64,000 nucleotides of DNA from Clostridia bacterium (GTDB lineage: Bacteria > Bacillota > Clostridia > UBA1381 > UMGS1253), in the NCBI GenBank assembly GCA_045652745.1, contig JAZRUW010000012.1:2089-66088 (forward strand), given 5' to 3'. The notes beneath the pieces were generated by a model, which did not search any database, was not told the origin of the DNA, and worked only from the letters and a program-made list of their open reading frames with translations. Positions within the stretch are counted from its first letter, which is position 1; every line of letters starts with the position of its first letter. The position numbers and the translations under genes are program-made. This document shows, one piece after another, positions 29,586-52,645 of this stretch.

Positions 29586-30950
29586 TTAGGTGCCGTAACG
29601 AAGAAAATCTTCGTAATCCGACATCTCGGATTCTTCCGTGTTGACGCTTGCGAGCAAATCAATCTCCGGCGTGTAGGGGATGTGTACGGAAGCGGTAAAG
29701 CCGCGAAGCGCATCCGGCGCGTGCGTCAGCTCGTGCGGATGCAGCGCCGTATCGTTTGGATTTTTTTCGTCAAAACACAGCGCCGGCAGGGTGCGGATTA
29801 AGTTTTTGCAGTTTCTGAAAATGCGCAGGCGCGGGCGCATGCAACCGTCCGTATCCACCACGGGACGCAGCCATTCCTTGACGGAGTACCAACCGCGCAC
29901 GCGGTTGTTGTCTGCCTTGTAAAAGGAAAGTCCGTGCGCGGCAAAAATGTCAATCGCACTTTGTCCCGTTTCCTGACGCCGGTTAAACAGGTCCGGCGGT
30001 GCGTAAGCGGCGCGTAAGGGTTCACCGCAGTTGTATTCAGCAATTTTCTGGGCCGCTTCGGATAAAATCAATCCGTTTTGATACAGTTCGCGGTAGACAA
30101 AGGCGTGTCCGTAACGGTCCACGGCAATCCACAGGCAGGCGAGCATGTCCAGACCGTAGTCGATGCTGATGTAGCGCGATACATCGGACGGCAATTCAAA
30201 CGGCTCGACGACGTGCGCTTCGCGGTCAAACTCTGCAAAATACTGCCCTTCGAACACATCCCAATCGCCGTCGAGCATCGCTTTTCTTCGATTGGGCGGT
30301 AAGTTTTCGAGTGTGCGCACATAGTCGGGCGAGTTTTGCAGCAGAAACGGATTGTCGTACACGCGCGAGGGGATAAAAGTATAATCCGAAGCGCGTTCGC
30401 TGTTTTTATAGTTTTTGTCTATGAACAGACGTTTTACCCAGCCGTGCCCGATGCCGCCGGGATTGCACGTAAAGTACATCCGCGGGGCAAAGGGCTTTTT
30501 TAACAGGCCGCTGGTACGGTTAGATTCGGTGAGCGCCGTAAAAACAAATTCGGAAAACTGCGTTGCCTCCTCCATAAAGATGGCATCGTAGCTTTGTCCC
30601 TGATATTGCAGTACGTCGCGGTCGGCGGCGCAGTAGCCGAGTACGATGCGGCTCCCGTTTTCAAAAACAAAACAGCGCGTGGCCGATTTGTACTCGGCGA
30701 TATCCTTTAAAAGTGCCATTAACGGATAGATGTGGTTTTCACGCAGGGATTGCAAATCGCGGCGCAAAAGCAGAATTTGAATGCCGTCGTACTCTAAGGC
30801 AAGTAAAACGGCCTTGATTCTTGCCGCCCAGCTTTTGCCGCCGCCGCGTGCGCCGCCGTAGGCAATGTAGCGCGTGTCTGCGGTGAAAAAAGCCTCCTGC
30901 TTTGGATACGGCTTTGTGAGCGCTAAGATGCGCTCGTTTACGTTGCCCAT
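29586..30950 (-). CDS. phage terminase large subunit
   Basis: Walker A YGGARGGGKSWA near the N-terminus, IFMEEATQF (Walker B-like), and a C-terminal nuclease-type region. At 454 aa it is intact. Confidence 0.85.
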   Translation of the reverse strand: MGNVNERILALTKPYPKQEAFFTADTRYIAYGGARGGGKSWAARIKAVLLALEYDGIQILLLRRDLQSLRENHIYPLMALLKDIAEYKSATRCFVFENGSRIVLGYCAADRDVLQYQGQSYDAIFMEEATQFSEFVFTALTESNRTSGLLKKPFAPRMYFTCNPGGIGHGWVKRLFIDKNYKNSERASDYTFIPSRVYDNPFLLQNSPDYVRTLENLPPNRRKAMLDGDWDVFEGQYFAEFDREAHVVEPFELPSDVSRYISIDYGLDMLACLWIAVDRYGHAFVYRELYQNGLILSEAAQKIAEYNCGEPLRAAYAPPDLFNRRQETGQSAIDIFAAHGLSFYKADNNRVRGWYSVKEWLRPVVDTDGCMRPRLRIFRNCKNLIRTLPALCFDEKNPNDTALHPHELTHAPDALRGFTASVHIPYTPEIDLLASVNTEESEMSDYEDFLRYGT

Positions 30951-32150: not shown

Positions 32151-32217
32151 GCGATATAAATTCCTGACGGAATTTGCGATATACCTTGTGGTGCGATATA
32201 TCCTGCGGATGCGATAT
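32151..32217 (+). repeat. four direct copies of GCGATAT in the addB leader
   Basis: GCGATAT at 32151, 32176, 32193 and 32211. The last three occur as TGCGATAT(A/G) with 17-18-nt spacing. Confidence 0.6.
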
Positions 32218-32272
32218 GTCCATTACGACAAACTATAATCACAGAACAATTATTTACAAAGGAGAAAGTGCC

Positions 32273-35200
32273 TTGAAAATTATTTACGGAAGAGCGCACA
32301 GCGGAAAAACGGCGGCGATGCTGGATGCCTTGGAGAAGACTTCCGCGCGTGGTGAAAAGTGCATAGTCATTGTGCCGGATCAGATTAGCTTTCGCACGGA
32401 GCAGATGCTTGCGTCGAAGTCCTTTTTCGGCGGTTTTGCGCAGGTGCTGACCTTTACAAAACTGGCAAAACGTATGGTGGCACAGCGCGCAGACGCGCGC
32501 AAGCCGATTTCCGCCTGCGGAAAAACCATGCTGATGTATCGCGCGCTTGCAAAGGTAAGCTCGAAGCTGAAGATGTACCGCGATGCGGCAAACAAAGCGG
32601 GCCTTGCGCCAAAACTTTTAAGTCTTGCAGAGGAGTTTTCGCACCTCGGCATTGACAGTGCGACTTTGTCTGCGTGCATCAAGGATGAAAAGCCGCTTTC
32701 CGTAAAACTGATGGATTTGACGGAGATTTTCGGCGCGTACGAACAACTTTTGTCCGGCGAGTATGCAGATACGGACGAGATGCTTCGTCTGTGCGCCGCG
32801 GCGATAGAAAACAGCGATGAATACAAAGACACACATATATATATTTCTGGGTTTTCGGATTTTTCGGTACCGCACTTTTCGGTGGTATCGGCTTTGGTAG
32901 GGCGCGCAAAATCCGTGACGGTGTTTGTGTGCGCGGACGAAAAATTGGATGCGCAGGGCTTTTTTGCGCCGGGCGCAGTAACGGTGCAAAAACTTAAAAA
33001 AGCCTTTCCGGATGCAGAAACAGTGTATTTGCAAAAAGCATATACGGATGGCGCGCTTGCGCATTTTGAGCGTGGTTACACAAAATATGCGTCTGCGGTA
33101 TATGCACATGCCCAGTCGGCGCTTGCGGTTTTTGAGGGCAGAAACCCGTATGCGGAAATTCACTTTGCCGCAAATGAAATTTTGCGCCTTTGCAGGGAAG
33201 AGGGATACCGTTTCCGTGATTTTGCGGTTGTTGCCGGAGACGGCGACCGTTATTTTGATACGGTTTCGTATATCTTTTCGCGCTACGGCATTCCGTTTTT
33301 CGTTTCTGCCAAGAAAAGCGCGGCTTCGCATCCTTTGGCGCTCGCGCTGCTTTCCGCCTTGGAAATCATTGAGCGCGGTTTTCAACACGATGCGGTATTT
33401 GCCTATTTGAAATCCGGCTTTTCCAATTTGAATGCCTATGAGGTGGATTTTCTGGAAAACTATGTTTTGGCCACGGGCATTGGCGCAAAGCACTGGACAA
33501 AGGATGAGGCTTGGAATTACAAGACATCTTATTTTGAGGAGAAAAATGCAATGGATGCCGCGCGTGCGGATACGCTTCGTCGTCGGGTAATCGAGCCGAT
33601 ATTGCAGCTCAAAGCCGGCATCGGTATCGGCAAAACCGTAAAAGAAAGCGCACAGGCGATTTACGCCTTTATGTGCGCCGTCGGGATGCGCGAAAAGACG
33701 GAAAAGCACATTGCGGCGCTTCGTGAGCAGAAAGTATTTGCCGCGGCAAGTATTTACCGCGGTACATATAACGGCATTGTGCACGTGCTTGAACAGATGT
33801 CCGTCTTGTGCGGCGAGGAAAAGTGCGGTGTTGCACGTCTGCGCAACATGCTGTCGGCAGGCCTGCTCGGTCAAAACCAGGCCATTGTGCCGCAACGCGT
33901 GGATGAAGTCGGCGTAACGGATGTGGCGCAGGGCAGATTTGCCGCTTGTAAAATTATGTTTGCGCTCGGCACAAACACGGGCGCGTTTAACGGTTTTTCC
34001 GGCAGCGAGGGCATTTTGTCCGATGCGGACCGTTTCGGACTGCGCGAAGGCGGTTTGGAAGTTTTGCCGACGGCAAGGCACAAGGCCTTCGACCATCGGT
34101 TTACGGTGTATAAGGCACTTACGGCGGCAACGGACAGATTATATATTTGCTATGCGGCATCGGATATGGACGGCAAGCCCTTTTCCGTTTCGGCGGTGGC
34201 GATGAAAGCAAAAAAGTTGTTTTCCGAATTGCCGGTGATGACGCAGGATGATTTTGAAGGGGCATTGCGCTCTCCACAGGAGGCAAGGGCGGCTTTAGCT
34301 GCTGAAATCGGACGCGCGCGTGACATCAAGCGCATCGGTGCAACGGGCGCAGCAATTTACAAGGTATTAAAAGAGAAAGAGCCTGGGTTTGCTAAGTTGC
34401 TTTCGCATTGCACGGACGGTGTGGTGCAGGCAAAAAAACTCGACAAATCTCAGGTAGAAAAATTGTATCCGCAGGACATTTCTATGTCCATTACCAGACT
34501 GGAAAAATACAGCGGATGTCCGTTTTCCTATTTTATGACCTATATGCTTTCGGCGCAGGAGAGAAAAATCAGCCGCATCGGTGCGCCGGATATTGGCACA
34601 ATGGTGCATCGTGCGTTAGAGTATTTTGTGGATGCGGCAAGAGAGAACAATGAAAGTATTGCAAAGATGCCGCCGGCGCGCGTGTATGCGCTCATCGGCG
34701 AGGTCAGTGGGCGCGTAACGCAGGAAATGTTTGAGGGTATGGCCGGTGTCAGCAAGGCATCGGAATATTTTGCCAAGCGCCTGCGCGTGAATCTGGAGCG
34801 TTGTGTGCAGATTTTGGTGCGCCATATTGCGCTCGGCAAATTTGAGCCGATCGGCAGTGAGGTGCATTTCGGCGATGACGGCGAGCTTAAGGCGGTTGCG
34901 GTCAGCTTAACGAGCGGCAAAAAAATTAAAATCCACGGTGTAATCGACCGTTTGGATAAGTATGAAGGCAAAGACGGCACATACTATCGCGTAATTGACT
35001 ACAAGACGGGGGCCAAGAGTTTTTCGCTCGACAACATTGCCAACGGCCTTGACTATCAGCTCATGGTTTACATGGAGGCGGCGCTCGGGGATGCTCCGAA
35101 TAAAAAACCGGCGGCGGTGATGTATTTTAAAATCAAAGAGCCGATGCTTTCCAAGCCGTCTATGACGGATGTAGATACCATTGCGGCGGAAATTCGAAAA

Positions 35201-35596
35201 AGCATGCGCCTCGACGGCAGATGCATTGATACGCCGGAAATTTTAGAGGCGATGGACAGTTCGGGTGCGACGGAAAGTGAAGTATTTAAACTCAAATACA
35301 ACAAAGACGGCAGCCTTGCCGCGCGTGGTGTGGATGTGTGCAGCATGCAGATGTTTTCGTGCATGGCCAAGCGCGTGCGCCGCAGTATCCGCGAGGTGGG
35401 CGATGCGCTTTTGCGCGGCGAAATTTCCATTTTGCCCGTACGCACGGCCAAGACGGATGCCTGCCGGTACTGTCCGCACAAGCCGGTATGTTTAAATGCG
35501 GGTGAGCGCGCGTTTGAACGCGAGTTTACTGACAGTGAACTCAGTGCGGAAGAAAGAATTTTAAAGGAAGGTGACGGGGATGCAATGGACAAGTGA
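32273..35596 (+). CDS. addB: helicase-exonuclease AddAB, subunit B
   Basis: LKIIYGRAHSGKT N-terminus (TTG start 5 nt after AAAGGAGAAA). C-terminal RecB-type nuclease with Fe-S cysteines (..CRYCPHKPVC..). Confidence 0.9.
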   Translation: MKIIYGRAHSGKTAAMLDALEKTSARGEKCIVIVPDQISFRTEQMLASKSFFGGFAQVLTFTKLAKRMVAQRADARKPISACGKTMLMYRALAKVSSKLKMYRDAANKAGLAPKLLSLAEEFSHLGIDSATLSACIKDEKPLSVKLMDLTEIFGAYEQLLSGEYADTDEMLRLCAAAIENSDEYKDTHIYISGFSDFSVPHFSVVSALVGRAKSVTVFVCADEKLDAQGFFAPGAVTVQKLKKAFPDAETVYLQKAYTDGALAHFERGYTKYASAVYAHAQSALAVFEGRNPYAEIHFAANEILRLCREEGYRFRDFAVVAGDGDRYFDTVSYIFSRYGIPFFVSAKKSAASHPLALALLSALEIIERGFQHDAVFAYLKSGFSNLNAYEVDFLENYVLATGIGAKHWTKDEAWNYKTSYFEEKNAMDAARADTLRRRVIEPILQLKAGIGIGKTVKESAQAIYAFMCAVGMREKTEKHIAALREQKVFAAASIYRGTYNGIVHVLEQMSVLCGEEKCGVARLRNMLSAGLLGQNQAIVPQRVDEVGVTDVAQGRFAACKIMFALGTNTGAFNGFSGSEGILSDADRFGLREGGLEVLPTARHKAFDHRFTVYKALTAATDRLYICYAASDMDGKPFSVSAVAMKAKKLFSELPVMTQDDFEGALRSPQEARAALAAEIGRARDIKRIGATGAAIYKVLKEKEPGFAKLLSHCTDGVVQAKKLDKSQVEKLYPQDISMSITRLEKYSGCPFSYFMTYMLSAQERKISRIGAPDIGTMVHRALEYFVDAARENNESIAKMPPARVYALIGEVSGRVTQEMFEGMAGVSKASEYFAKRLRVNLERCVQILVRHIALGKFEPIGSEVHFGDDGELKAVAVSLTSGKKIKIHGVIDRLDKYEGKDGTYYRVIDYKTGAKSFSLDNIANGLDYQLMVYMEAALGDAPNKKPAAVMYFKIKEPMLSKPSMTDVDTIAAEIRKSMRLDGRCIDTPEILEAMDSSGATESEVFKLKYNKDGSLAARGVDVCSMQMFSCMAKRVRRSIREVGDALLRGEISILPVRTAKTDACRYCPHKPVCLNAGERAFEREFTDSELSAEERILKEGDGDAMDK

Positions 35597-38500
35597 CCAG
35601 GAAAAAGCGATAACCTTGCGCGATTGTAACGTGCTGGTTGCCGCGGCGGCCGGCTCGGGTAAAACGGCTGTATTGGTAGAGCGTATTATCCAACTGATCA
35701 CCGACCCCGAAAAACCGACCGATATAGACAGAATGCTGATTACCACCTTTACGGAGGCGGCGGCATCGAAAATGAAATATGAGATTGCGCAGGCATTGGA
35801 AAAGCGTCTGGAGGTTACGCCGGATGACAAAAATCTTTCTCGCCAGCTTGTGCTTTTAGATAATGCGAAAATTTGCACGGTACATGCTTTTTGTATGCGA
35901 TTGGTACGTGCAGGCTTTCAAAGCCTGGATATTGAGCCGGATTTCGGTATCGGTGACGACGGAGAAATGAAGTTATTGTTAAATAAATCCGTAGATGCGT
36001 TGTTTGAAGAACTCTATGAAAACGGCGACGCAGGTTTTCTGGATTTGATGGAAAGTTATGCGACGGCGCGCAGCGACAGCGGACTGCGTGAGATTTTGCT
36101 GGCGCTGTATCGGTTTGCATCCAGTCTGCCGTTTAAGGATAGTTATTTTGATGATGCAAATGCGCTGTATACGGTCGAGCAAGCCGAGTCGCATCCGTGG
36201 TTTGTGCAGATTGCGCAGATGTCGGTTTTGCGCTTGCAAAGCTGCATCGTGCAGATGCGCCGTTTGCATGCAAGTGCGCTTTTGTATGACGGCATGGTGA
36301 AATATGCCGCCGCGCTCGAAGAAGAGATTGCGCATCTTTGCCATATAGAAACGGTGCTTCAAAAAGGAGAATTCGAGCGCGCGGGTGCTTTGGCGCGCAG
36401 TTTTGCACCGGCTTCCCCGCGTGTGGTCAAGGGCGATGTGTCCGACCTTTTAAAAATGCAAATCAGCGAGGTGCGCAAAACGGCAAAAGAGCTGACGCAG
36501 GAAATCGGGGACAGTTGTTTTCCGGAGGATACGGCGCGTGTGTTTGCGGATTTGCGTGCCTGCGGCGAAAAGGGCGAAACCATCAGCCGTATGGTACTGC
36601 GCTTAGATGAACTGTTTACCGAGGAGAAAAAGCGCCGCGGTGTACTGGATTTTTCGGATTTGGAGCATCTGGCGGTGCGCCTGCTGTGCCATAAAGATGA
36701 CGAAGGCAACATCGTACAAAGTGCGCAGGCCAAGGAAATTGCCGAAGGACTTGACTATATTTTGGTCGATGAATTTCAAGATACCAACGAATTGCAGGAA
36801 ACGATATTTACGATGATTTCGCGCGGCGACAATCTGTTTATGGTCGGCGATGTCAAGCAGAGTATTTACCGGTTTCGCCATACGAATCCATATATTTTCA
36901 AATCGAAAAAGGATACATACAGTGACGATGACGGCATCAACCGCCGCGTCATTATGTCGAAAAACTTCCGTAGCCGTGACAGCGTGATTGCCGGTGTCAA
37001 CTGTGTGTTTGAACGAGTGGCCAGCGAGCAGGTTGGCGAAATCACCTATGATGAAACAGAGCGGCTCAATGCGGCCTTTCCGTATCCGCCGGCAGACGGA
37101 AAAACGTGCGGCGGCAAGACGGAAATTTTAATCGGCACGGGTGCGCGCGAAGATATGAGCGAAGACGAACTTGAAGCGCATATGATTGCACAGCGCATTG
37201 TCAAGCTTTTAAGCGAGGGCTACATGCTCTATGATGCTAAAAAGCAACAGATGCGCCCTGCTACGTATAAAGACATTGTGCTTTTGATGCGTTCGTACAG
37301 GTTCAGCGCACCGACTTATGTCAAGGTACTCGAAAGCTACGGCATCCCGTGTTATGCGGATTCCGGCGGCGGGTATTTTGAAAACAACGAAGTGACGTTT
37401 ATGCTTTCGCTTTTAAAAGTCATCGACAATCCGTATCAGGATATTGAACTGATTGCGATGTTGCGCGGTGTGCTTTTCGGCTTTGACGAAAATGAGCTTC
37501 TTAAAATCCGTCTGGCGGACAAGCAGGCGCCGTTTTTCGATTGCGTGCGCAAATGCGCGGGCGGGGAGGATGCGCTCGCCGAAAAGTGCAAACATTTTGT
37601 TGATAAACTGTCCGTATGGCGCGGTTATGTGCGCTATATGTCTACATATGAGTTAATCGGCGCTCTGTATCGCGAAACGGATTACGATTTGTTTGCGCTC
37701 GGACAGCCGGGCGGTGAATACAGAAGAGAAAATCTGAATATGTTATTTGAAAGAGCGCGTGCGTTTGATTCCACGGGCTTTAAGGGTTTGTTTAACTTTA
37801 TTACCTATGTGGACGGCCTGCGCGATGCGCAGACGGGCGACGGGGATGCAAAACTTATTTCCGAAACACAGGACGTTGTGCGCATTATGAGTATTCACAA
37901 AAGTAAGGGTCTGGAGTTCGGCGTGGTCTTTTTGGCGCACGCGACGAAGGCATTTAATATGCGCGATTTAAATTCGGTACTGTTGATGCACAAAACACTC
38001 GGTCTTGGTTTTGATGTGGTGGACAAGGAAAACTGCTACAAATACCCAAGTGTGGCAAAACTGGCCATTCGCGAAAAACTGCGTATGGAGAATTTGAGCG
38101 AGGAACTGCGTATTTTGTATGTAGGCATGACCCGTGCACGCGAAAAACTGATTGTGACGGGTGTGAAAGAAAAGTTTGAATTTGAAGCGTATAGTGTGGA
38201 AAATGAAAACGGCGTATTGCCGCTGTTTGTTCCGGCAACGGCGAACTGCTATATGGATTGGATTTTGCCCGCGATGCTGATGCGGACAAACGGCGTAAGT
38301 GACGCAAGTGTTTGGGAAGACAATCATATTGTAACCGAATTGTTTGAGGCGCGCACCTTTACGCAGAGTGCGCTGGAAAAAGAGGCGAAAAAGGGCGCAG
38401 ATGCGCCGTCTGAACCTCCGAAACCCGATGCAGTCGAGGTGGACAAAGCGGAAAAGGTGCTTGCATACGCATACCCGTATCTGGCCGACACAACCTTGCC

Positions 38501-39134
38501 GAGCAAGGTGTCTGTCACGGAGGTAAAGCGTATGGCCGAGTTGGAAACAGACCCCGAGGCCGTGGGTTGGTACGATGCGGGTACGCTTGCAGAGCCGCAG
38601 TTTGACGAGCCGAAAGAAATTGTCGGTGCGGCGCGCGGCACGGTGGTGCATTTTGTGATGCAGCATATAGATTTTGCGCAGGGAACGGATGCAAAATCCG
38701 TTGCGGCGCAAATTCGGAAAATGCAGGAAGATGGTCTTTTGAACGCAGCGGAGGCCGCGGCGGTATCGCCTGCGGCAATTGCGGAATTTTTCGCATCGCC
38801 GCTCGGGTGCAGGATGGTTGCAAGTGCTCATGTAGAGCGCGAGTTTCCGTTTGAAATTCAGGTGCCTGCCGCCGACCTTTTTAAGACATACACAGGGGAC
38901 TGTCCTTTGCTTTTGCAGGGAATCATCGACTGCTTCTTTGAAGAGGACGGCGAGGTTGTTTTGGTCGATTACAAAACCGACCGTGCCACAAATGATGCAG
39001 AGATTGCGGACATCCGCGCACGTTATGCGGTGCAGCTTCAATATTATGCGCAGGCGATTGAACAAATTACGGGCAAGCATGTGAAAGAGAAATATTTATA
39101 TCTGTTTTCGGCACGGCGCGCCGTAGAGATGTAA
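35580..39134 (+). CDS. addA: helicase-exonuclease AddAB, subunit A (UvrD-type helicase plus nuclease)
   Basis: [36 protein letters not shown], then DEFQDTN, then C-terminal ..[23 protein letters not shown]. It overlaps the addB stop by 17 nt. Confidence 0.9.
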   Translation: [1184 protein letters not shown]

Positions 39135-39843: not shown

Positions 39844-39935
39844 TGGCGGAGAAGGAGGGATTCGAACCCTCGAACCGCTTTTGACGGTTACACGATTTCC
39901 AATCGTGCGCGCTCGACCAGCTACGCGACTTCTCC
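39844..39935 (-). tRNA. tRNA-Ser (anticodon GGA), class II with long variable arm, encoded CCA
   Basis: The reverse complement folds by hand. Acceptor GGAGAAG/CTTCTCC. D-arm GCGT..GCGC with a GG loop. Anticodon stem CACGA/TCGTG with loop TTGGAAA. Variable arm AACCGTCAAAAGCGGTT. T-arm GAGGG-TTCGAAT-CCCTC. Ends in GCCA. Length 92 nt. Confidence 0.9.
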
Positions 39936-43118: not shown

Positions 43119-43796
43119 ATGCAAGAAAAGAGAAAAATCGCACTGCTTTGTGCGGCGGTGCTCGTGTGCTGTATTTTGATGGCACTTGTGGACGGCGTAT
43201 GGCAGCCGCACTATTTTGTCAAATCTGCAATCAAACTGGTGTTGTTTTTGTTGGTGCCCGTTTTATATGCACGCACGAATAAAACATTACGGCTCGGCGA
43301 GATGTTTCGCATAGAGAAAAAGGGATTGGCATTTGCGCTGGCGCTCGGCGTTGCGGTTTATGCGGTGATTCTGGGCGGTTATTTTCTGTTGCGCGGGGTA
43401 TTTGATTTTTCCAATATTACAAATTCGCTGACAGCAGGCATTGGTGTGCATAAAGAAAATTTTGTGTATGTCGCGTTGTATATCTCTTTTGTCAATTCAC
43501 TTTTGGAGGAATTCTTTTTCCGCGGCTTTGCGTTTCTGGGACTTAGAAAAATTGCGGGACTGCGGTTTGCATATTTGCTCAGTGCAGGTGCATTTGCTGT
43601 ATACCATGTGGCGATGATGCTCGGCTGGTTTTCGCCGATGGCCTTCGTTTTGGTGATGGCGGGATTGTTTGCCGGCGGTTTGATTTTTAACGCGCTTAAT
43701 GCAAAATGGGGCTCGGTGTACCCGTCGTGGCTGATGCATATGTTTGCAAATTTTGCCATCAATACGGTCGGGTTTATTCTGTTTGGAATTTTATGA
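43119..43796 (+). CDS. CPBP-family intramembrane glutamic endopeptidase (CAAX protease/Abi-like)
   Basis: Polytopic. Motif 1 is SLLEEFFFRGFAF. Later AVYHV and HMFANFAIN histidine motifs follow. Confidence 0.8.
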   Translation: MQEKRKIALLCAAVLVCCILMALVDGVWQPHYFVKSAIKLVLFLLVPVLYARTNKTLRLGEMFRIEKKGLAFALALGVAVYAVILGGYFLLRGVFDFSNITNSLTAGIGVHKENFVYVALYISFVNSLLEEFFFRGFAFLGLRKIAGLRFAYLLSAGAFAVYHVAMMLGWFSPMAFVLVMAGLFAGGLIFNALNAKWGSVYPSWLMHMFANFAINTVGFILFGIL

Positions 43797-43804
43797 AAAA
43801 ATGC

Positions 43805-43833
43805 TTGACAAGACAGTCAGAGTATGCTATATT
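43805..43833 (+). promoter_or_regulatory. sigma-A promoter of the T-box operon
   Basis: TTGACA (43805-43810), 17-nt spacer, TGcTATATT (43825-43833). Confidence 0.65.
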
Positions 43834-43839
43834 TATCTC

Positions 43840-44122
43840 ATTATGAAAACGCTGTGATGCGGAATAGTACGCGAAAAGTTTTCGCCTGGAGAGAGATGCC
43901 GGACGGTGCGAGGCATTGGGAAGGTTTTGCAGAACTCACCGCGGAGCGGCTGCCGTGAAAAATAAAGTAGAGGCAGACGGGAACTCCCGTTACAGAGTCA
44001 AGATGTGTTAGCATCTAAAGGGCATCCCGAAGGATGAAGAAGAGTGGTACCGCGGAAGCAAAAAACAGTTAATGTTATGCTTTCGTCTCTTTCAAAACTA
44101 AAAGAGACGAAAGCATTTTTTT
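43840..44122 (+). promoter_or_regulatory. T-box riboswitch leader, specifier codon CUC (Leu)
   Basis: Stem I has a K-turn-like GCTGTGATGCGG / CCGCGGAGCGGC base, an AGTA element, a GGAGAGAG bulge and a GGTGCGAG distal loop. The specifier loop gcagaaCTCa places CTC at 43935-43937. The conserved T-box sequence AAGAGTGGTACCGCG is at 44039-44055. A 16-bp terminator (44077-44116) plus a T-run follows. Confidence 0.85.
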
Positions 44123-44158
44123 GTATCTTTCGTTTCAAAAAGGAAAGGGAGAAAAATT

Positions 44159-45547
44159 ATGAGAACAATCCATGTAACAGACATTACGCTCAAGAAATTG
44201 GCGGCAGAGCGCGCAGTTTCGCTGTTGTTTCGTGAAAAGACCGCGATTGCGGCCTGTGCAGATTCTATCGGTGCAGATGCGATAGAGCTTGCGGCGATTT
44301 CGAGCCTCAGAGAGGATACGATTATTTATAAGACTATTTCCCAAAACGTACAAAACAGCATCTTGGCGATTCCGGTCGGCTTTTCGGCGCAGGAGGTTTG
44401 CGATGCGTGGGAATGTGTAAAGGAAGCCGCAAAGCCGAGATTGCAAATTGAGGTACCGACTTCGACGGTGCAGATGGAGTATATGTATCATGTCAAAGCC
44501 GATAAGATGGCAGAAAAAATCGGTGCGCTGACCAAACAGGCAAAGGCACTTTGCGCGGATGTGGAGTTTGTTGCGTTGGATGCAACACGTGCGGATGAAG
44601 AATTTTTGATTGCCGCATGTAAGAGCGCAGAGGAAAACGGTGCAAATCTTGTGACGGTTTGTGATGATACAGGGATGGCACTTCCGGAGGAAATCGCGGC
44701 ATTGGTCGGCAAGGTAAAGGCGGCCGTATCCGTGCCGGTGTATGTATCCGTATGCGACGGTATAGGTATGGCAAACGCGGCGGCTGTGGCGGCAATTTCT
44801 GCCGGTGCAGACGGCGTAAAGTGCGCGATGGCAGGTGCAAAAGTACTGCAGATGGGCACTTTTAGCGCGGCGATGACAGCGCGCGGCGATGCCCTCGGCG
44901 TAAACTGCGGTTTGGTGAACACAAAAATTCATGCAAGTATTGAGGACTTATTGTCTAAAATCAATCACGAGGCGTATGAAAGTGCGGACAGCGTGAGCGA
45001 AAAGAAAAAGATTTTGCTTGACGAGGATTCCACAATTTCCGATGTGGCCCATGCTGCAAATGTGCTTGGCTACGATTTGTCCGATGAGGACAACGGCAAG
45101 GTGCATAAGGCGCTTATGCAGGTTTGTGAAAAGAAAGGCTCCGTCGGTGCTAAGGAGTTTGAGGCACTCATTGCAAGCAGTGCGATGCAGGCGCCGTCTA
45201 CCTATCATTTTGAAAGTTATTCGACGAGCTGCGGCAATCTGACGAGTGCAATGTCGCAGGTAACGCTCAGATGCGGCGACGAGCTTTTGTGCGGTGTGAG
45301 CACGGGCGACGGCCCGATTGACTCGGTATTCCGCGCCATCGAGCAGAGCATCGGATATCACTATGAACTCGACGATTTCCAGATTCAGTCCGTGACGGAC
45401 GGCAAAGAAGCACTCGGCTCAGCGTTGGTAAAACTGCGTGTGGGCGGCAAACTCTATTCCGGTAACGGTAGTTCGACTGACATTGTAGCGGCGAGCATCC
45501 GTGCGTATATCAATGCGCTCAATAAGATTGTATTTGAGGAGGCGTAA
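44159..45547 (+). CDS. 2-isopropylmalate-synthase-like protein with degenerate catalytic motifs and an intact LeuA allosteric (dimerisation) domain
   Basis: The HMGL-like barrel aligns by eye (DVEFVALDATRADEEFL..NLVTVCDDTGMALPEE), but DTTLRDGEQ is DITLKKLAA, HxHNDxG is VSVCDGIG and GIGERAGN is AGAKVLQM. The C-terminal GDGPIDSVFRAIE..SVTDGKEALGSALVKL..GNGSSTDIVAASIRAYINALNKI is a canonical LeuA_dimer domain. Confidence 0.75.
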   Translation: MRTIHVTDITLKKLAAERAVSLLFREKTAIAACADSIGADAIELAAISSLREDTIIYKTISQNVQNSILAIPVGFSAQEVCDAWECVKEAAKPRLQIEVPTSTVQMEYMYHVKADKMAEKIGALTKQAKALCADVEFVALDATRADEEFLIAACKSAEENGANLVTVCDDTGMALPEEIAALVGKVKAAVSVPVYVSVCDGIGMANAAAVAAISAGADGVKCAMAGAKVLQMGTFSAAMTARGDALGVNCGLVNTKIHASIEDLLSKINHEAYESADSVSEKKKILLDEDSTISDVAHAANVLGYDLSDEDNGKVHKALMQVCEKKGSVGAKEFEALIASSAMQAPSTYHFESYSTSCGNLTSAMSQVTLRCGDELLCGVSTGDGPIDSVFRAIEQSIGYHYELDDFQIQSVTDGKEALGSALVKLRVGGKLYSGNGSSTDIVAASIRAYINALNKIVFEEA

Positions 45548-45550
45548 GCG

Positions 45551-48010
45551 ATGAAACTGACCTTTTCAACGAAAAACGTGCATCGTCCTACCTTTCTGGA
45601 TACCTGCCGTTATGCATATGATTACGGCTATGCAGGTTTTGAAATTTATGACGCTGTTGCGGAACGTAAGCAGCACCACGACAGTATTTTAAGAACAGAT
45701 CGCGTGGCGGATGCAAAACGCAAGTTGTTTAATCGCGGTTTGGCAGTATCTGCGCTGCGCTACCCGTACGAAGTGGAAAGCGAACTGGCCTGTGCACAGA
45801 CACTTGAAAAATATGTTGATATGGCGAGAAATGCGGGCATTGAACGTGTCATCGTACGTGTTTGGGAAGAACCGGACAAGGCGCTGCTTTATGAGAAGCT
45901 GATGCCGGCAATTCAGCGTGCGGAAAAAGCGGATATACAGATTTTGTTTGAAACGGCCGGCTACCTGGCGCAGACGGAGCATGTGATTGATTTAATCAAT
46001 CTATTTTCGTCGGCAGCAATCGGGGTTTCGTGGAACACGAGAGAAACCTATTTCCGTGCCGGTGAGAGTGCCGATAAGACCATTAAAACCTTAGGTGCGT
46101 ATATCAAATATGTGCGACTCGGCGATATGGCGGACGGCAAAAAAGTGCTCATCGGTGAGGGAGAATTGCCGGTGACCAATGTAATTAACGCGCTTTCTTC
46201 GCTCAATTTTGACGGCTATATTTGTGTGGCATGGAATGAAGAAATTCAGGATGCAGATATTGTTTTGACGCATTTTATAAATTATATCGCCAGCCTTTCG
46301 CGCCGCCGCAAGGAAAAAGACGGCGCGTACTATAACCGCGATAAGTCGGGTACATTTGTCTGGAAAAAGTATGATGTCATTGATGCAACATTTTCCGATG
46401 TGCTCGATACGATGGTAGAAAAGTATCCGGACCAGTATGCCTTTAAGTATACGACCTTGGATTATACCCGTACTTATGCGCAATTCCGCCGCGATGTGGA
46501 TGAATGTGCGGCGGCGCTGATTTCGCTGGGTGTAAAAGCGGGCGACCATGTTGCCGTGTGGGCAACCAATGTGCCGGCGTGGTTTATTACCTTCTGGGCA
46601 ACCACGAAAATCGGTGCGGTACTCGTTACGGTAAACACGGCTTATAAAATTCACGAAATTGAATATCTTTTAAAGCAGTCGGATACCCATACGCTGGTGA
46701 TGATTGAAGATTGTAAGGACATCAACTATAAAGAAATTATCGAAGAACTTTGTCCGGAATTAAAGGGATTGAAACCGGGCACACCGCTCTATTCGAAAAA
46801 CCTGCCGTTTTTGCGCAATGTCGTTACGGTAGGCTTTGAGATGGACGGATGTCTTACCTGGGAGAAGATGCTTTCGCGCAGCAGCATGGTGCCGCAGGAG
46901 GAAGTGCGCAGACGCGCATCGCTTGTAAAGCCGGACGATGTGTGCAACATGCAGTACACTTCGGGTACAACCGGTTTTCCGAAAGGTGTTATGCTGACGC
47001 ACAGAAACATTGTAAACAACGGTAAAACCATCGGCGACCGCATGGATTTGTCCACGGCGGACCGCATGATGATTCAGGTGCCGATGTTCCATTGTTTCGG
47101 CATGGTTTTGTCGATGACATCTATGATGACGCACGGCGGCACGCTCTGTCCGATGCCGTACTTTTCGCCGAAATCGTCGCTGGCATGTGTAAATGATGAG
47201 CATATTACCTGCTTTAACGGCGTGCCGACGATGTTTATTGCGATGTTTAACCATGCAGATTTCGCGAAGACCGATTTTTCGTATATGCGTACGGGCATTA
47301 TGGCCGGTGCAAACTGTCCGGCGGATTTGATGCGCCGCGCGGCAGAAGAAATGAATATGCGTGAGATTATTTCCGTGTACGGGCAGACCGAGGCTTCGCC
47401 GGGCTGTACGATGGGTGAGGTCAATGAAGACCTTGACCACCGTGTGGAAACGGTAGGCTCGGCTTTTCCGGGTGTGGAGTGTAAGATTATCGATCCGGAA
47501 ACCGGAGAGGAATTGCCGGACGGCGAGAGCGGCGAGTTTGTAGCGCGCGGCTTTAACATCATGAAGGGGTACTACAAGATGCCGGAGGCAACCGCGCAGA
47601 CGATTGATGCGGACGGCTGGCTCCATTCGGGCGACATTTGCTGCCGTACACCGGATGGCTATTACAAGGTAACGGGCCGACTCAAGGATATGATTATTCG
47701 CGGCGGCGAAAATCTCTATCCGCGTGAAATCGAAGAATTTTATCTTACACATCCGAAGGTGCGCGATGTGCAGGTGGTTGGTGTGCCGGATGAGCGTTAC
47801 GGCGAAGAATGCTGTGCGTGGATTATTTTGCACAAGGGCGAAGAAGCGGACGAAAACGAAATGCGCGAATTTGGTAATGCTTCCATTGCGCGCCATAAAG
47901 TACCGCGCTACTTTGTGTTTGTCAAGGAATTTCCGATGAACGCCGCAGGCAAAATTTTGAAATATAAAATGCGTGACGAATCCGTGGAAATACTCGGATT
48001 GAAAAAATGA
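45551..48010 (+). CDS. fusion protein: xylose-isomerase-like TIM-barrel domain plus AMP-forming acyl-CoA synthetase/ligase
   Basis: Single uninterrupted 819-aa ORF. Residues 1 to about 255 are AP-endonuclease-2/sugar-phosphate-isomerase-like (GYAGFEIYD, ILFETAGY, YIKYVRLGD, NFDGYICVAW). The rest is an adenylate-forming enzyme (MQYTSGTTGFPKGVMLTHRNIV, ..GWLHSGD.., ..RLKDMIIRGGENLYPREIE.., C-terminal ..AAGKILKYKMRD). Confidence 0.8.
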   Translation: MKLTFSTKNVHRPTFLDTCRYAYDYGYAGFEIYDAVAERKQHHDSILRTDRVADAKRKLFNRGLAVSALRYPYEVESELACAQTLEKYVDMARNAGIERVIVRVWEEPDKALLYEKLMPAIQRAEKADIQILFETAGYLAQTEHVIDLINLFSSAAIGVSWNTRETYFRAGESADKTIKTLGAYIKYVRLGDMADGKKVLIGEGELPVTNVINALSSLNFDGYICVAWNEEIQDADIVLTHFINYIASLSRRRKEKDGAYYNRDKSGTFVWKKYDVIDATFSDVLDTMVEKYPDQYAFKYTTLDYTRTYAQFRRDVDECAAALISLGVKAGDHVAVWATNVPAWFITFWATTKIGAVLVTVNTAYKIHEIEYLLKQSDTHTLVMIEDCKDINYKEIIEELCPELKGLKPGTPLYSKNLPFLRNVVTVGFEMDGCLTWEKMLSRSSMVPQEEVRRRASLVKPDDVCNMQYTSGTTGFPKGVMLTHRNIVNNGKTIGDRMDLSTADRMMIQVPMFHCFGMVLSMTSMMTHGGTLCPMPYFSPKSSLACVNDEHITCFNGVPTMFIAMFNHADFAKTDFSYMRTGIMAGANCPADLMRRAAEEMNMREIISVYGQTEASPGCTMGEVNEDLDHRVETVGSAFPGVECKIIDPETGEELPDGESGEFVARGFNIMKGYYKMPEATAQTIDADGWLHSGDICCRTPDGYYKVTGRLKDMIIRGGENLYPREIEEFYLTHPKVRDVQVVGVPDERYGEECCAWIILHKGEEADENEMREFGNASIARHKVPRYFVFVKEFPMNAAGKILKYKMRDESVEILGLKK

Positions 48011-48013
48011 TTC

Positions 48014-48049
48014 AAAAAGACAGATTTTTCTCAAAAATCTGTCTTTTTT
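48014..48049 (+). terminator. rho-independent terminator of the T-box operon
   Basis: aaaaagacagattttt-ctc-aaaaatctgtcttttt. Confidence 0.75.
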
Positions 48050-48052
48050 GTG

Positions 48053-48081
48053 TTGACTTTACAAACAGCCTGTAATATAAT
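48053..48081 (+). promoter_or_regulatory. sigma-A promoter of the 1506-aa surface-protein gene
   Basis: TTGACT (48053-48058), 17-nt spacer, TATAAT (48076-48081). TGTAATATA is repeated at 48071 and 48082. Confidence 0.65.
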
Positions 48082-48124: not shown

Positions 48125-51100
48125 ATGAAAAAAATTCTGAGTATGATTTTGACGGTGTGTATGCTTATAAGCGTACTGCCGACAAGCTTTGTATGGGCGG
48201 CGTCCGAGCCGGTCGTGCTGTTTGACTATGACTTTGAGGATTGTGTTCTTGGAGACAACGTGCCGCTCAAGGCGGATTCGCTTACGGATTGGTCAAGCGG
48301 TCTATTTGGGGAACTGCCCCGCATCGAGGCGGTAAAAGATGCCGAGCACGGCACAGTAGTCAAATATTATAGAAAGGAAGGGTCAGGTGCACCGAGACTG
48401 GACAAAGTATTGTACGCAGGCGGTATGACCAATATGACCGTATCTTTTGAGGCAAAACAAGCCGGCGGATCAAAACTGATATGCAGGCTGTATTATGCGG
48501 ATGGAACATCTTATGATGAGTTTACATCGGTTAATCAAACTACATGGACGAAGTTTGAGGTTAAGTTCAATTTTACCGACGGTACATATTCTGTAAATGG
48601 CGGTCAAACTAAAACTATGGCAAGTACAGATACATCTGAACTGACTTTGCGTTTTAGTGCCAGTGTTAGCACGGAGAAATATGCTTATTTAGATGATGTC
48701 TTGGTGACAACAACGGATAATGTGACTCCGGAGGATGTATCCAACGGCGATGTCGGTGTGCGTACACCTGAGGAGATTATGGCGCCGTTTGCGCAGTATA
48801 CGAAGGCACCGGCAACTGCCGTGCCGGATGGCAAGTATAAGCTCTTTGCCTATGACGGCAGTCTGAATACAAACGACGGCGTTGCTACGGGTACGGATGC
48901 ACTCTGGACGAATGTATCCAGAGCAAAGTCGGCCGTTTTGGATGAGGACAACCTCATTCGTTTTACAAATGATAGACGAAGCATGCAAAATGCTTATGTA
49001 ACCAAGAAGCTTGCGGTTGGTACAAATCCGGGCACGGTGTGCATGGAATATTATACCGTGCTTTCGGACAGCAAGGCGTATGTGTCGCTGGCGGCCAATG
49101 AACAAACGGATACAGGTACGACGAACACGACATTGGTGGAGACAAATACAATTACGAAATCGACCGCCGGCGTAAATGCAGACGCATGGAATCTGGTGAA
49201 AGCTGAGTTTGATTTTACAAACGGGCAATATAAGATTTATGTCAATGATACGCTTGCGGAGCAGGGGGCGTTTAAAGCATCCATGCCGGAAGGCGCGTAT
49301 GAAGTCACCATCGGTGCACGCGCAAAGCTTGCAGGGGCAGACACTATGCTGGTCGATAACTTTGTAATGTATCAGGACAGCGAGCCGGAAGTGTCAGGCG
49401 AAAAATACTACGGTACCACGGGTACAACTTGGAGGAAAGTGACGGAGGGCATTAAACTTGATGCGAATAGTTATGTATACAAACTGCGTTCGCATCCGAG
49501 ACTTTTGATTACCAGCCGTCAGGCGGTTTTGGATAAAATTGCTGCAGACCCGAAAGTGGCGGCATGGTATAAAGCTGTTAAAGAGGATGCGGATAAAGAT
49601 TTGGGGAAAGACCCGCAGAAATATGAGTTTTCCAACGGCAGAAATATTAAAAAAGAAGCCAGTGTGATTTCCGGTCGAATCACCCGCCTGGCGTTGGTGT
49701 ATCTGGTAGCGCAAGAAGACAAATATTTTGAGCGTGCGCTTTTAGAAATCCGTAACGCGGGCACATTTCCGGACTGGTCCAATTCGGCGCCGATTCTGGC
49801 ATCGGGCATTATGTACAGTATTGCATGCTTTTACGACTGGTGCTATGACGCGCCGGGTATGACAGCTGCAGTTAAAACAGAGATTATTGACATTGTCAAG
49901 AAACAGGCGCTCTGGCAGTTTGCACGTTCGTATGACGGCGTAATCAACGTAGAAATTGCAAACGGTAACACAAACAGAACGACGGTTGCCAATGCCTGCG
50001 GTGCGGGTATGGCAATTGCAATGGCGGACGAAGAGCAGCTGCTTGCACAATATTTGATTGATAATGCGATTAAGTGCACCCAGCAGACGGTAAATGCGTA
50101 TAGTACGGACGGTGCATTTTCGGAGGGTACATCCTACTGGGAATATGCAAATGACAGTATGTTTAACTTCCTTGCGCAGATGGACAGCGCAACGGTGGAG
50201 GGCTATGAAAAGCCGCAGGCACTGCAGTGGTATTATGAGTCAGGAGAGTTGTACAATACACCCGATTACTGGGCATATATGTCCGGTCCGGCCGGTAATT
50301 TTGACTACGGCGATTCCAATCCGGAATTTTCGGGACATCCGTTAATCTACTGGTATTCCCAGCGTAACAACAGACCGTTTTACAGTTGGTTTTTGGAAAG
50401 AACGCTGCAGAGAATCGGTTCTTCGGTAGGCAGCAAAAAGTTTGCGATTGCTTATTACGATAACACTTTTGAAAGCTACAATGACGGCACGATGCCGCTG
50501 GATAAAACCTTTAATGCAACCGCTTTGGCGCAGGTAGCGAGCATGCGCTCGTCCTGGACTGCAGGCGATGCTCTGTATGCGGCAATCCAGGGCGGTGACA
50601 ACCAAGCGAGCCATATGGCAAAATCGCTCGGTACATTTGTGCTCGATGCAAACGGCAAGCGCTTTGTACGCCAGATTGGGCATGTGGATTATGGTTCACT
50701 GTATGATTCGCATCTGTATTACATGGAGCGTGCCGAGGGTAATAATACCATTATCGCGAACCCGAACTTGGATGGCGAGAGCTTTGACCAAAACGAGAAT
50801 GCCATCGCAAGATTTATCAAACATGCAGAGGCGGAAAACGAAGCCTACACCGTGCTGAATATGACGGAAACAAACGATGCATTTACCGATGCAAAGCGCG
50901 GTATGTATATGACCAAGGGCAGAAACTCGGTTGTGCTTCAGGATGAAATCGAAACAAATACACCGTCCGAAATCTGGTGGTTTGCGCATACGGATGCAGA
51001 GCTTACGTTAACAGAGGACAAAAAGGGCGCAATCATGCGTATCGGCAACGAAAAGGTGTATGCGAGAATTACGAGCGGCCCTGCGGATGCGGTCTTTACC

Positions 51101-52645
51101 GTAATGGAAGCCGAGTCGATGATGGATGAGGAGCTTCGTGCACCGGACGAAATTGCGGTAAATTGTCAGAAGCTTGCTATTCATATGCAAAATGTTTCCG
51201 ACCTTACATTGACAGTGGAATTTATTCCGCTTCGTACAGGAGAAGGTGTACCGACTGCATTTACCGAGGTTAAGCCGATTGAGAACTGGAGCGTATCGGA
51301 TAATACAATCTCTGCAAAGCGTCAGGCAGGCGATGCCGTTGTGATGCTTGCAAACAGTCCGATGGCGATTGCATATGAATCCAAAGTTGCCATTAACGAA
51401 AACGATACAAATGTTGCGCCGTTTGTGCAAGACGAGGTGCTCTATGTACCGGCGATTCGCACGGCGGAACTTGCTTACGGCAAGGCAACATTTAAAGACG
51501 GCAACCTCAGCGTAACGAGAGATTATGTAACCAACACAATCAGCGAAGGCTTATTGACGCGGGACGATGTGGTATATGCACCGGCAACGGCGCTTGCAAC
51601 GGCGCTCGGCATGCAGCTTTACACCTACGAAAACAGCATGTTTGCTTTTGCGGACAGAGACCCTGCCTATACGGATGCAGAAAAGGCAGCCGTATACACG
51701 GAGCTCAATACCCATGTTTACTTAAACGAGGAGCTGTTTACAGGTTTCAGCACGGAAAAAACGACCTATTTCATCCCGAATGACATTTCGATGCCGACCG
51801 TGCGCGTGTCGAGCGGTGAGACAGTGACCAAGACAAAGGATAGCGCAAGCTTTACGGTAAACGGACAGACTTATAATTTCTATCGCACGGACGTCGTGGA
51901 TGCGGTAGCCCGCTACAATGTTGCTCTCGGCAAAGTATTGACGGCGAATAAGGAAATGGGTGGCACAAACATAGTGGATTATATAACGGATGGCGATATG
52001 AGCACCTTCGGCGGTGTAAAGTACACAACCGTAAAGAATGTAACCTTTACGCTCGAACTGGAAGGCCCGCACTATATAGAATCTCTGCAACTGACCGATA
52101 GAAGACCGGAAGCTGCTTCAGTTATGGAGAAGGTTGTATACACCGGTATTCTGGAAGACGGCAGCAAGGTGAACCTCGGCGGAATTGAAAACATGGATGT
52201 TGCCGGCGAACTTTCAGGCGAACGCCGCTTAAATGTTGTACAGTGTGCGGTTGAGCAGCCGGTTACTGCCATTGAAATGTATCTGGAAGATACCAACGGT
52301 TCTGTCAATGGTGAGAACGATGACAGAATCTCTATCTATGAATTTGAGGTTATCGGCATCAAGGCAAGTACAGAGCCGATTGTTCCGGAAACCTATACGA
52401 CGTATGCAAAGACTGACGGAGGGTATGCTTTCAGCACGGAATTTGCCGGTTTGATACCGCAGAGCGGTTATCTGATTGCTGTCGCCTATAACGGTGACAA
52501 GCAGGTTGGTATGAGAATCGTGCCGTGTACAGGCAAAGAAAAGGAAGAATACACAATGGAATGTACAGCACTTGATAAGGTGCAGATTATGCTGTTGGAG
52601 TCGTTTTACACAATGCGGCTTCTTGCAAATCCGGAAATTTTATAA
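48125..52645 (+). CDS. large secreted heparinase II/III-family (polysaccharide-lyase-like) multidomain protein
   Basis: Signal peptide, then two ConA/LamG-like modules (FDYDFEDCVLGD.., ..VDNFVMYQD). The heparinase II/III-like core runs LRSHPRLLITSRQAVLDKIAADPKVAAWY.., FPDWSN.., ..GDNQASHMAKSLGTFVLDANGKRF... A copper-amine-oxidase-like stalk segment and a discoidin/F5-8-type-C-like module lie near the C-terminus. Confidence 0.7.
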   Translation: MKKILSMILTVCMLISVLPTSFVWAASEPVVLFDYDFEDCVLGDNVPLKADSLTDWSSGLFGELPRIEAVKDAEHGTVVKYYRKEGSGAPRLDKVLYAGGMTNMTVSFEAKQAGGSKLICRLYYADGTSYDEFTSVNQTTWTKFEVKFNFTDGTYSVNGGQTKTMASTDTSELTLRFSASVSTEKYAYLDDVLVTTTDNVTPEDVSNGDVGVRTPEEIMAPFAQYTKAPATAVPDGKYKLFAYDGSLNTNDGVATGTDALWTNVSRAKSAVLDEDNLIRFTNDRRSMQNAYVTKKLAVGTNPGTVCMEYYTVLSDSKAYVSLAANEQTDTGTTNTTLVETNTITKSTAGVNADAWNLVKAEFDFTNGQYKIYVNDTLAEQGAFKASMPEGAYEVTIGARAKLAGADTMLVDNFVMYQDSEPEVSGEKYYGTTGTTWRKVTEGIKLDANSYVYKLRSHPRLLITSRQAVLDKIAADPKVAAWYKAVKEDADKDLGKDPQKYEFSNGRNIKKEASVISGRITRLALVYLVAQEDKYFERALLEIRNAGTFPDWSNSAPILASGIMYSIACFYDWCYDAPGMTAAVKTEIIDIVKKQALWQFARSYDGVINVEIANGNTNRTTVANACGAGMAIAMADEEQLLAQYLIDNAIKCTQQTVNAYSTDGAFSEGTSYWEYANDSMFNFLAQMDSATVEGYEKPQALQWYYESGELYNTPDYWAYMSGPAGNFDYGDSNPEFSGHPLIYWYSQRNNRPFYSWFLERTLQRIGSSVGSKKFAIAYYDNTFESYNDGTMPLDKTFNATALAQVASMRSSWTAGDALYAAIQGGDNQASHMAKSLGTFVLDANGKRFVRQIGHVDYGSLYDSHLYYMERAEGNNTIIANPNLDGESFDQNENAIARFIKHAEAENEAYTVLNMTETNDAFTDAKRGMYMTKGRNSVVLQDEIETNTPSEIWWFAHTDAELTLTEDKKGAIMRIGNEKVYARITSGPADAVFTVMEAESMMDEELRAPDEIAVNCQKLAIHMQNVSDLTLTVEFIPLRTGEGVPTAFTEVKPIENWSVSDNTISAKRQAGDAVVMLANSPMAIAYESKVAINENDTNVAPFVQDEVLYVPAIRTAELAYGKATFKDGNLSVTRDYVTNTISEGLLTRDDVVYAPATALATALGMQLYTYENSMFAFADRDPAYTDAEKAAVYTELNTHVYLNEELFTGFSTEKTTYFIPNDISMPTVRVSSGETVTKTKDSASFTVNGQTYNFYRTDVVDAVARYNVALGKVLTANKEMGGTNIVDYITDGDMSTFGGVKYTTVKNVTFTLELEGPHYIESLQLTDRRPEAASVMEKVVYTGILEDGSKVNLGGIENMDVAGELSGERRLNVVQCAVEQPVTAIEMYLEDTNGSVNGENDDRISIYEFEVIGIKASTEPIVPETYTTYAKTDGGYAFSTEFAGLIPQSGYLIAVAYNGDKQVGMRIVPCTGKEKEEYTMECTALDKVQIMLLESFYTMRLLANPEIL

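Follow-up and report, generated by a model that had tools for sequence, protein, structure and literature searches.

A predicted non-catalytic LeuA paralogue behind a leucine T-box: a candidate leucine-sensing partner of an acyl-CoA ligase in gut and rumen Clostridia

The closest described relative of the protein considered here is isopropylmalate synthase (LeuA). The protein is encoded by the open reading frame (ORF) at 44159-45547 in a 64,000-nucleotide (nt) stretch of contig JAZRUW010000012.1 from a Clostridia bacterium; that whole stretch is called the window below. We refer to the protein, a predicted non-catalytic paralogue of LeuA, as pLeuA. The short form of LeuA (TIGR00973/PRK00915) has the same domain order as pLeuA, with an HMGL-like barrel first and a LeuA_dimer domain last. 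Both are linked to leucine supply and found behind a leucine T-box, and the best family and structure matches of pLeuA are LeuAs. Unlike LeuA, pLeuA has no metal ligands, no GERAGN motif and no accessory subdomain, and its family usually lacks the substrate Arg and the catalytic Glu. It is also about 50 residues shorter, and its gene is always paired with that of an acyl-coenzyme A (acyl-CoA) ligase, not with leuBCD.

A second comparison is with HisZ, a dead paralogue of histidyl-tRNA synthetase that serves as the regulatory subunit of short-form HisG; both the complex and its inhibition by histidine are established. The role proposed here for pLeuA is similar, in that a dead paralogue concerned with the same amino acid would keep its binding part and act as end-product sensor for a different enzyme. 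HisZ and pLeuA are not homologous, however, and on the pLeuA side the likeness is drawn from the adjacency and tight spacing of genes. The principle of a pseudoenzyme acting as an allosteric subunit is familiar; the role and partner that we propose for a LeuA-family protein would be new.

The third comparison is metabolic. Synthesis of leucine, isoleucine and valine from isoacids by rumen and gut anaerobes has been known since the 1960s, and it is the reason why isoacids are fed to dairy cattle. The classical work on this route was physiological and based on labelling, whereas the loci described here give candidate genes. As set out in PMC7356843, which cites Allison and co-workers, rumen bacteria make the three amino acids from isovalerate, 2-methylbutyrate and isobutyrate through carboxylation and amination; the leucine, isoleucine and valine ligases, the oxidoreductase and the aminotransferase at the loci here would supply just the steps required for it. 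Full-text searches, which did not reach most subscription journals, turned up no account of a LeuA without catalytic function, of a fusion like that of the ligase or of branched-chain fatty acid ligases under T-box control. Nor did they yield any work that assigns these ligase genes or a LeuA-like partner to the isoacid route, names genes for its activation step or accounts for separate control of its three branches.

We propose that pLeuA senses leucine and, as a regulatory partner, controls the ligase encoded directly downstream, in a route from isovalerate to leucine, and we give this reading about an even chance. It draws on the loss of the catalytic residues, the constraint on the regulatory domain, the leucine T-box, the invariable partner gene and the genes found near the pair in related genomes.

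The ORF (44159..45547, + strand) is uninterrupted and encodes 462 amino acids (aa), with an ATG at 44159 and the sequence GGGAG 7 nt 5' of the start, in agreement with the intact frame and good ribosome-binding site described in the initial annotation. The similarity to isopropylmalate synthases claimed there is also borne out. Pfam places HMGL-like (PF00682) on aa 20-242 (E 2.8e-25) and LeuA_dimer (PF08502) on aa 331-457 (E 1.1e-28, profile positions 4-130 of 131), and all of the quoted LeuA-type peptides are present, namely DITLKKLAA (aa 8-16), VSVCDG (196-201), AGAKVLQM (225-232), DVEFVALDATRADEEFL and VTVCDDTGMALPEE. No NCBIfam model claims the family above its cut-off. The best match, NF002086, reaches 235 bits against a cut-off of 532, and TIGR00973 reaches 212 against 598.7; every LeuA equivalog is matched at less than half its cut-off, in two stretches that skip LeuA positions ~231-321. 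The AlphaFold2 model, for which 91 family members were used, has a predicted local distance difference test score of 92.6, with values below 50, or predicted disorder, confined to residues 272-281. In Foldseek comparisons the modelled barrel fits 3ewb and 3rmj with a root-mean-square deviation of 1.7 Å, the full-length model matches Mycobacterium tuberculosis LeuA, and the other matches are LeuA and its relatives.

From Pfam, PDB alignments and the AlphaFold2 model, the HMGL-like (DRE-TIM) barrel occupies aa 1-246 (44159..44896, +). A linker follows at aa 247-330 (44897..45148, +), where alignment with true LeuAs locates the deletion of the accessory subdomain and where the disordered residues 272-281 lie. 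The LeuA_dimer, or allosteric, domain assigned by PF08502 takes up aa 331-462 together with the stop codon (45149..45547, +). The fold of pLeuA is that of LeuA; its chemistry is not.

Catalytic sites were compared through HMMER alignments to 3eeg, 3rmj and 3ewb and through a MAFFT alignment that included three true LeuAs, and were tabulated over 107 full-length family representatives at 50% identity. Three catalytic signatures had been described as changed in the initial annotation, and the alignments agree. The substrate Arg of LRDG is K12 in pLeuA (Arg in 34 and Lys in 28 of the 107 representatives), the metal Asp of the same motif is K13 (Asp in 9/107) and the catalytic Glu of xED is L140 (Glu in 25/107). 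The first and second metal His residues correspond to S197 and C199, and neither position holds His in any representative (0/107 for each). The GERAGN motif is replaced: its Glu is deleted in pLeuA, as in 106 of the 107, and its Asn is V229, with Asn in 0/107. The idea that the ligands are conserved at shifted positions was rejected, as MAFFT, HMMER and the AlphaFold2 model compared by Foldseek all put non-ligand residues at the ligand sites. Profile alignment and model, both suggested earlier as checks, give the same picture of a LeuA fold that is kept and ligand positions that are not.

Two features were absent from the initial annotation, namely the ligase partner gene and the loss of the accessory subdomain. 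This post-barrel subdomain of about 40 residues (with the motif HxxGIHQDG; PF22617/PF22615) is deleted family-wide in the alignment with true LeuAs, and Pfam finds no PF22617 in pLeuA, though it detects the domain in the true LeuA of a related locus, L083. [quoted passage not shown] The substitutions R80A, R80K and E218A are listed as abolishing the activity of M. tuberculosis LeuA (PMC10464499), and the corresponding residues of pLeuA are K and L. Judged by its residues, the pLeuA family is catalytically dead as an isopropylmalate synthase, and the loss is family-wide, not peculiar to the window gene. One further protein, P0245 (516 aa, 34% identical), keeps RDG, HxH and G-DRAGN and is without the accessory motif HxxGIHQDG; it may stand between the two in evolution or represent an enzyme family of its own.

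In line with the view taken from its sequence at the outset, the gene is also not simply decaying. A word-indexed search returned more than 120 clusters at 73-100% identity to pLeuA, nearly all of 461-463 aa; the few close clusters with names are labelled 'hypothetical protein' and come from metagenome-assembled genomes (MAGs) of Oscillospiraceae or Ruminococcaceae. An exhaustive search of 50%-identity representatives added about 107 full-length members at 34-50% identity and 453-497 aa, and true LeuAs first appeared in it at about 30-34% identity. Scanning one genome per species gave 80 pLeuA loci, almost all in gut and rumen Clostridia, with carriers that include Acutalibacteraceae, Oscillospiraceae, Christensenellaceae, Lachnospiraceae, Ruminococcus and Faecousia. 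Frameshifted orthologues, named earlier as a possible sign of decay, were not seen in the pLeuA alignments, which are full length except where a contig end cuts them. Compared with a 90%-identical orthologue, the ratio of nonsynonymous to synonymous substitution rates (dN/dS) is 0.052 over the whole gene, 0.089 in the barrel and 0.017 in the regulatory domain, at a dS of about 1. The constraint is therefore strong, and strongest in the regulatory domain; among close relatives 55% of its columns are invariant, and 24% of those in the barrel. pLeuA is a gene under purifying selection, and it belongs to a deep and conserved family.

It is because the leucine-sensing part of LeuA has been kept under the strongest constraint that we propose pLeuA as a leucine-sensing subunit. 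The regulatory domain carries a GDGPID loop (aa 383-388) and the pattern STDI..AS..AY..ALNK. Over 91 representatives G383 and G385 never vary, and P386, D388 and A389 are each at least 90% conserved; in LeuA this GxGPxDA loop binds the effector. Only isopropylmalate synthase models are matched by the C-terminal 173 residues of pLeuA. A regulatory domain of the citramalate synthase (isoleucine) type is not supported, since no citramalate synthase model was matched by these residues. With the near-complete PF08502 match and the low dN/dS given above, the earlier view of a conserved regulatory domain stands. An isolated PF08502 domain is able to act as an amino-acid sensor (PMC13381585). The PDB sequence set contained no short-form LeuA with its regulatory domain, and the pLeuA profile reaches 1sr9/3fig through the barrel only and 3f6g over 49 residues only.

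The operon begins with a T-box leader at 43845..44093 (+), which matches RF00230 over its full length and scores 123.6 bits, above the gathering score of 93 (E 6.4e-27). Its specifier codon, read from 'GAA-CUC-A' in the Rfam alignment, is CUC (Leu) at 43935-43937, and the T-box sequence AGUGGUACCGCG lies at 44043-44054. A promoter-like site at 43805..43833 (+; TTGACA and TATATT separated by 17 nt, plus an extended -10 TG; 11/12 matches in a consensus scan) lies 12 nt 5' of the leader. The intrinsic terminator of the T-box, found by a terminator scan at 44077..44123 (+), consists of a stem of 16 base pairs (44077-44116) and a T run, and overlaps the 3' end of the Rfam match. The leucine T-box of the initial annotation is thus confirmed. 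Set against RF00230, it is a canonical full-length RNA with a leucine specifier, and the unusual part is the gene that it controls. Related leaders agree, with a T-box 5' of pLeuA in 64 of the 85 evaluable loci and a CUC or CUG specifier in all 64. A pairing-based script read 61 of these specifiers, and the other three were read by eye. For eight loci the reading was compared with Rfam alignments (the window, L001, L019, L029, L036, L044, L072 and L081).

The partner gene, an 819-aa ORF at 45551..48010, begins 4 nt past pLeuA and encodes a triosephosphate isomerase (TIM) barrel fused to an AMP-forming acyl-CoA ligase; we call the product TIM-ligase. Its aa 1-260 (45551..46330, +) form a xylose-isomerase-like TIM domain (Pfam AP_endonuc_2, aa 20-230). 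The ligase domain at aa 276-819 (46376..48010, +) matches AMP-binding (PF00501, E 2e-95) and AMP-binding_C (PF13193, E 1e-16). The PDB matches of the partner are acyl-CoA synthetases, and its best NCBIfam match is PRK12583 (E 4e-203). We examined 87 loci, the window included, of which 85 have downstream sequence. Counted from the pLeuA loci, TIM-ligase is encoded directly 3' of pLeuA in 85/85, of which 65 have a gap of -4 to +9 nt, and the genes that flank the pair vary from locus to locus. The ligase domain remains 69-95% identical even where pLeuA is at 40-45% and the TIM domain at 28-31%. Likewise, positions at least 90% conserved make up 55% of the ligase domain and 12% of the TIM domain. 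Compared with 4kw2, the nearest solved relative, the TIM domain has R at the expected metal His and A at the expected Glu, and it is probably non-catalytic. A palindromic terminator-like hairpin at 48014..48048, from the terminator scan, marks the end of the two-gene operon, and the next promoter-like site follows at 48053-48081. At two loci, both in MAGs, two or three ORFs take the place of a single TIM-ligase gene (L037:3396-5906 and L077:3527-5416) next to an intact pLeuA gene, through either a frameshift or an assembly error.

Related genomes place further genes beside the pair. Within 10 kb, about 38 loci hold genes for a class IV (branched-chain) aminotransferase, a CbiA/ParA-like P-loop nucleoside triphosphatase (NTPase) and the alpha and beta subunits of a 2-oxoacid:ferredoxin oxidoreductase; the gamma subunit was confirmed in L024. 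Loci with these pathway genes also encode one or two additional ligases, each about 770 aa long, which carry an XRE-type helix-turn-helix (HTH) and a cupin domain in place of the TIM barrel (examples at L009:13908-19108 and L024:2027-4570). They fall into two orthogroups. The T-box that precedes the first always reads AUC (Ile; about 29 cases), and the one that precedes the second reads GUA or GUC (Val; about 18 cases). Because the fusion of HTH and ligase recalls the BirA type of enzyme and repressor, these proteins may be both enzymes and regulators. The NTPase, of about 220 aa, is encoded between the ligases and the oxidoreductase (L024:4570-5232; L003:10918-11610; L009:20188-20856) and may help to mature the latter.

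Two loci illustrate the arrangement. L009 has a leucine T-box with pLeuA and TIM-ligase, then an isoleucine T-box with an HTH-cupin-ligase, then a valine T-box with an HTH-cupin-ligase, and then the aminotransferase, the NTPase and the start of the oxidoreductase alpha gene at the end of the stored sequence. In L024 the valine T-box ligase, the NTPase, oxidoreductase alpha, beta and gamma and the aminotransferase lie on one strand with short gaps. Since they follow a valine T-box ligase on the same strand at short distance, the aminotransferase and oxidoreductase genes of both loci are probably induced by starvation, and synthesis therefore fits better than breakdown. A catabolic (Stickland) role of the ligase was ruled out, as T-boxes turn genes on in amino-acid starvation. 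At another locus, in an Eggerthellaceae MAG (L083:9992-18546), the pair is followed directly by leuC, leuD, a true leuA and leuB, so that a dead and a live LeuA share one cluster; the true LeuA has 529 aa and PF22617. L072 contains a second T-box (236-468, minus strand) with an AUC (Ile) specifier, which faces away from the pLeuA operon toward a gene cut by the contig end.

Taken together, the comparative evidence argues strongly for a pathway from isovalerate to leucine, and we infer that isovalerate is the substrate of the ligase. Uncharged tRNA-Leu would open the CUC T-box, and the genes for pLeuA and TIM-ligase would be transcribed and translated together. The ligase would convert isovalerate, ATP and CoA to isovaleryl-CoA, the 2-oxoacid:ferredoxin oxidoreductase would form 2-oxoisocaproate from it by reductive carboxylation, and the class IV aminotransferase would yield leucine. 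The last two enzymes would be encoded elsewhere in the window genome; in many relatives their genes lie beside the pair. Two further ligases would activate 2-methylbutyrate and isobutyrate, with oxidoreductase and aminotransferase common to all branches. Because those enzymes would be shared by the three branches, the ligase would be the sole branch-specific step and the control point. T-boxes would supply branch-specific control at the level of transcription. At the protein level, pLeuA would form a complex with the ligase, and leucine bound by its LeuA_dimer domain would throttle ligase activity. Docking would probably take place through the dead barrel and linker of pLeuA onto the poorly conserved TIM domain of the ligase, and the cupin domains of the isoleucine and valine ligases may be the sensors of their branches. 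That the LeuA pseudoenzyme and the TIM domain form a leucine-gated switch on the ligase, as one arm of a three-branch system for leucine, isoleucine and valine, is a tentative proposal, to which we give somewhat less than an even chance.

Several observations weigh against leucine sensing by pLeuA on an isovalerate ligase. What points to isovalerate is regulation and neighbouring genes; the PRK12583 match is below its cut-off and is not specific for a substrate. Neither the oxidoreductase nor the aminotransferase is encoded in the 64 kb of the window. No T-box lies directly upstream of pLeuA in 21 of the 85 evaluable loci (L003, L004, L006, L030, L037-L040, L045, L047, L048, L050, L052, L059, L062, L068, L070, L071, L076, L077 and L083), and an Rfam scan of ten of these likewise found none. 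PF08502 binds isoleucine in citramalate synthase, so the fold does not guarantee the ligand. A mirror-tree comparison of pLeuA with the TIM domain gave partial correlations of 0.42-0.58 when controlled for the ligase domain, a weak co-evolution signal that is confounded by shared phylogeny and that we do not use as evidence. Finally, the polar barrel-mouth residues D8, T10, S102, E107, Y108, D141, R144 and D169 are each at least 90% conserved, and the substrate Arg position is R or K in 62 of the 107 representatives. Because of these conserved residues, the barrel may still bind something. Of the loci without a T-box, L040 and some others have pLeuA after an aminotransferase gene in a longer operon.

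The strict adjacency and tight spacing of the two genes would equally suit an obligatory structural or specificity subunit, a scaffold or MbtH-like chaperone that senses no leucine and keeps LeuA_dimer for dimerization. The C-terminal domain of true LeuA is, as its Pfam name says, also a dimerization element, and fast evolution, which is possible in interface or scaffold modules, is seen in both the pLeuA barrel and the TIM domain of the ligase. However, the invariant residues of the pLeuA regulatory domain include those of the effector loop, and its regulatory domain is five times more constrained than its barrel. The isoleucine and valine ligases, moreover, hold a cupin of the small-molecule type at the equivalent place, which suggests that each branch has a sensor of its own. 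We consider a purely structural role unlikely, although it survives better than the other alternatives.

Less likely again is that isovaleryl-CoA mainly primes the synthesis of branched-chain fatty acids for membrane lipids, with pLeuA still reporting leucine status. Among Firmicutes, short branched acyl-CoA synthetases are known to scavenge branched acids as lipid primers, induction by a T-box on leucine shortage would also fit a shortage of primer, and the window has no oxidoreductase or aminotransferase nearby. The many loci with aminotransferase and oxidoreductase genes that are probably induced by starvation make sense for the making of amino acids and not for their consumption, however, and the clustering of the pair with leuCD-leuA-leuB in L083 speaks against a lipid role as well.

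The conserved polar residues of the barrel mouth, and the retention of the Arg (34/107) or the catalytic Glu (25/107) in some members, could also belong to an enzyme with a new, metal-independent site in the barrel, perhaps shared with the TIM domain and acting on isovaleryl-CoA or a 2-oxoacid. This we hold to be improbable. The conserved residues are mostly those that true LeuAs conserve too, the variable positions are exactly the catalytic ones, and polar residues form no new invariant cluster. Of the two halves of pLeuA the barrel evolves faster, and the accessory subdomain that in the solved LeuA (PMC9860122) sits beside the partner chain's catalytic domain has been deleted. As for a decaying leuA pseudogene that is still open by chance, which has the loss of catalytic motifs as its only support, it is refuted by a dN/dS of 0.05-0.10, by the absence of frameshifts in the alignments and by a deep family of uniform length that spans many Clostridia families with its regulation and partner gene conserved.

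In the window, an Rce1-like CAAX protease gene (43119-43796) lies just 5' of the operon and is kept in the two closest relatives (L085 and L086), not in more distant loci. Directly after the operon, a 1506-aa ORF (48125-52645) has its own promoter-like site and a signal-peptide-like N-terminus, with no Pfam match at E below 1e-4. Further upstream are a gene for tRNA-Ser with anticodon GGA (39844-39935, minus) and a phage terminase large subunit gene (29586-30950, minus) that adjoins addB/addA (32174-39134); the terminase region may be a prophage remnant.

The proposed role of pLeuA as leucine-sensing partner of TIM-ligase bears on annotation and on evolution. In metabolic reconstructions of gut MAGs, pLeuA proteins should not be counted as isopropylmalate synthases. 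If the proposal is correct, pLeuA would be the first DRE-TIM enzyme known as an allosteric subunit of an adenylate-forming enzyme, and a clear natural case in which the chemistry was lost and the allosteric domain was kept to regulate another enzyme, of interest for pseudoenzyme evolution and for the design of leucine biosensors. The pLeuA loci give testable candidates, namely three ligases labelled by their T-boxes and a dedicated sensor for the leucine branch recycled from the classical pathway. If true, they would provide the so far unassigned genes with which Clostridia of rumen and gut make amino acids from branched-chain fatty acids.

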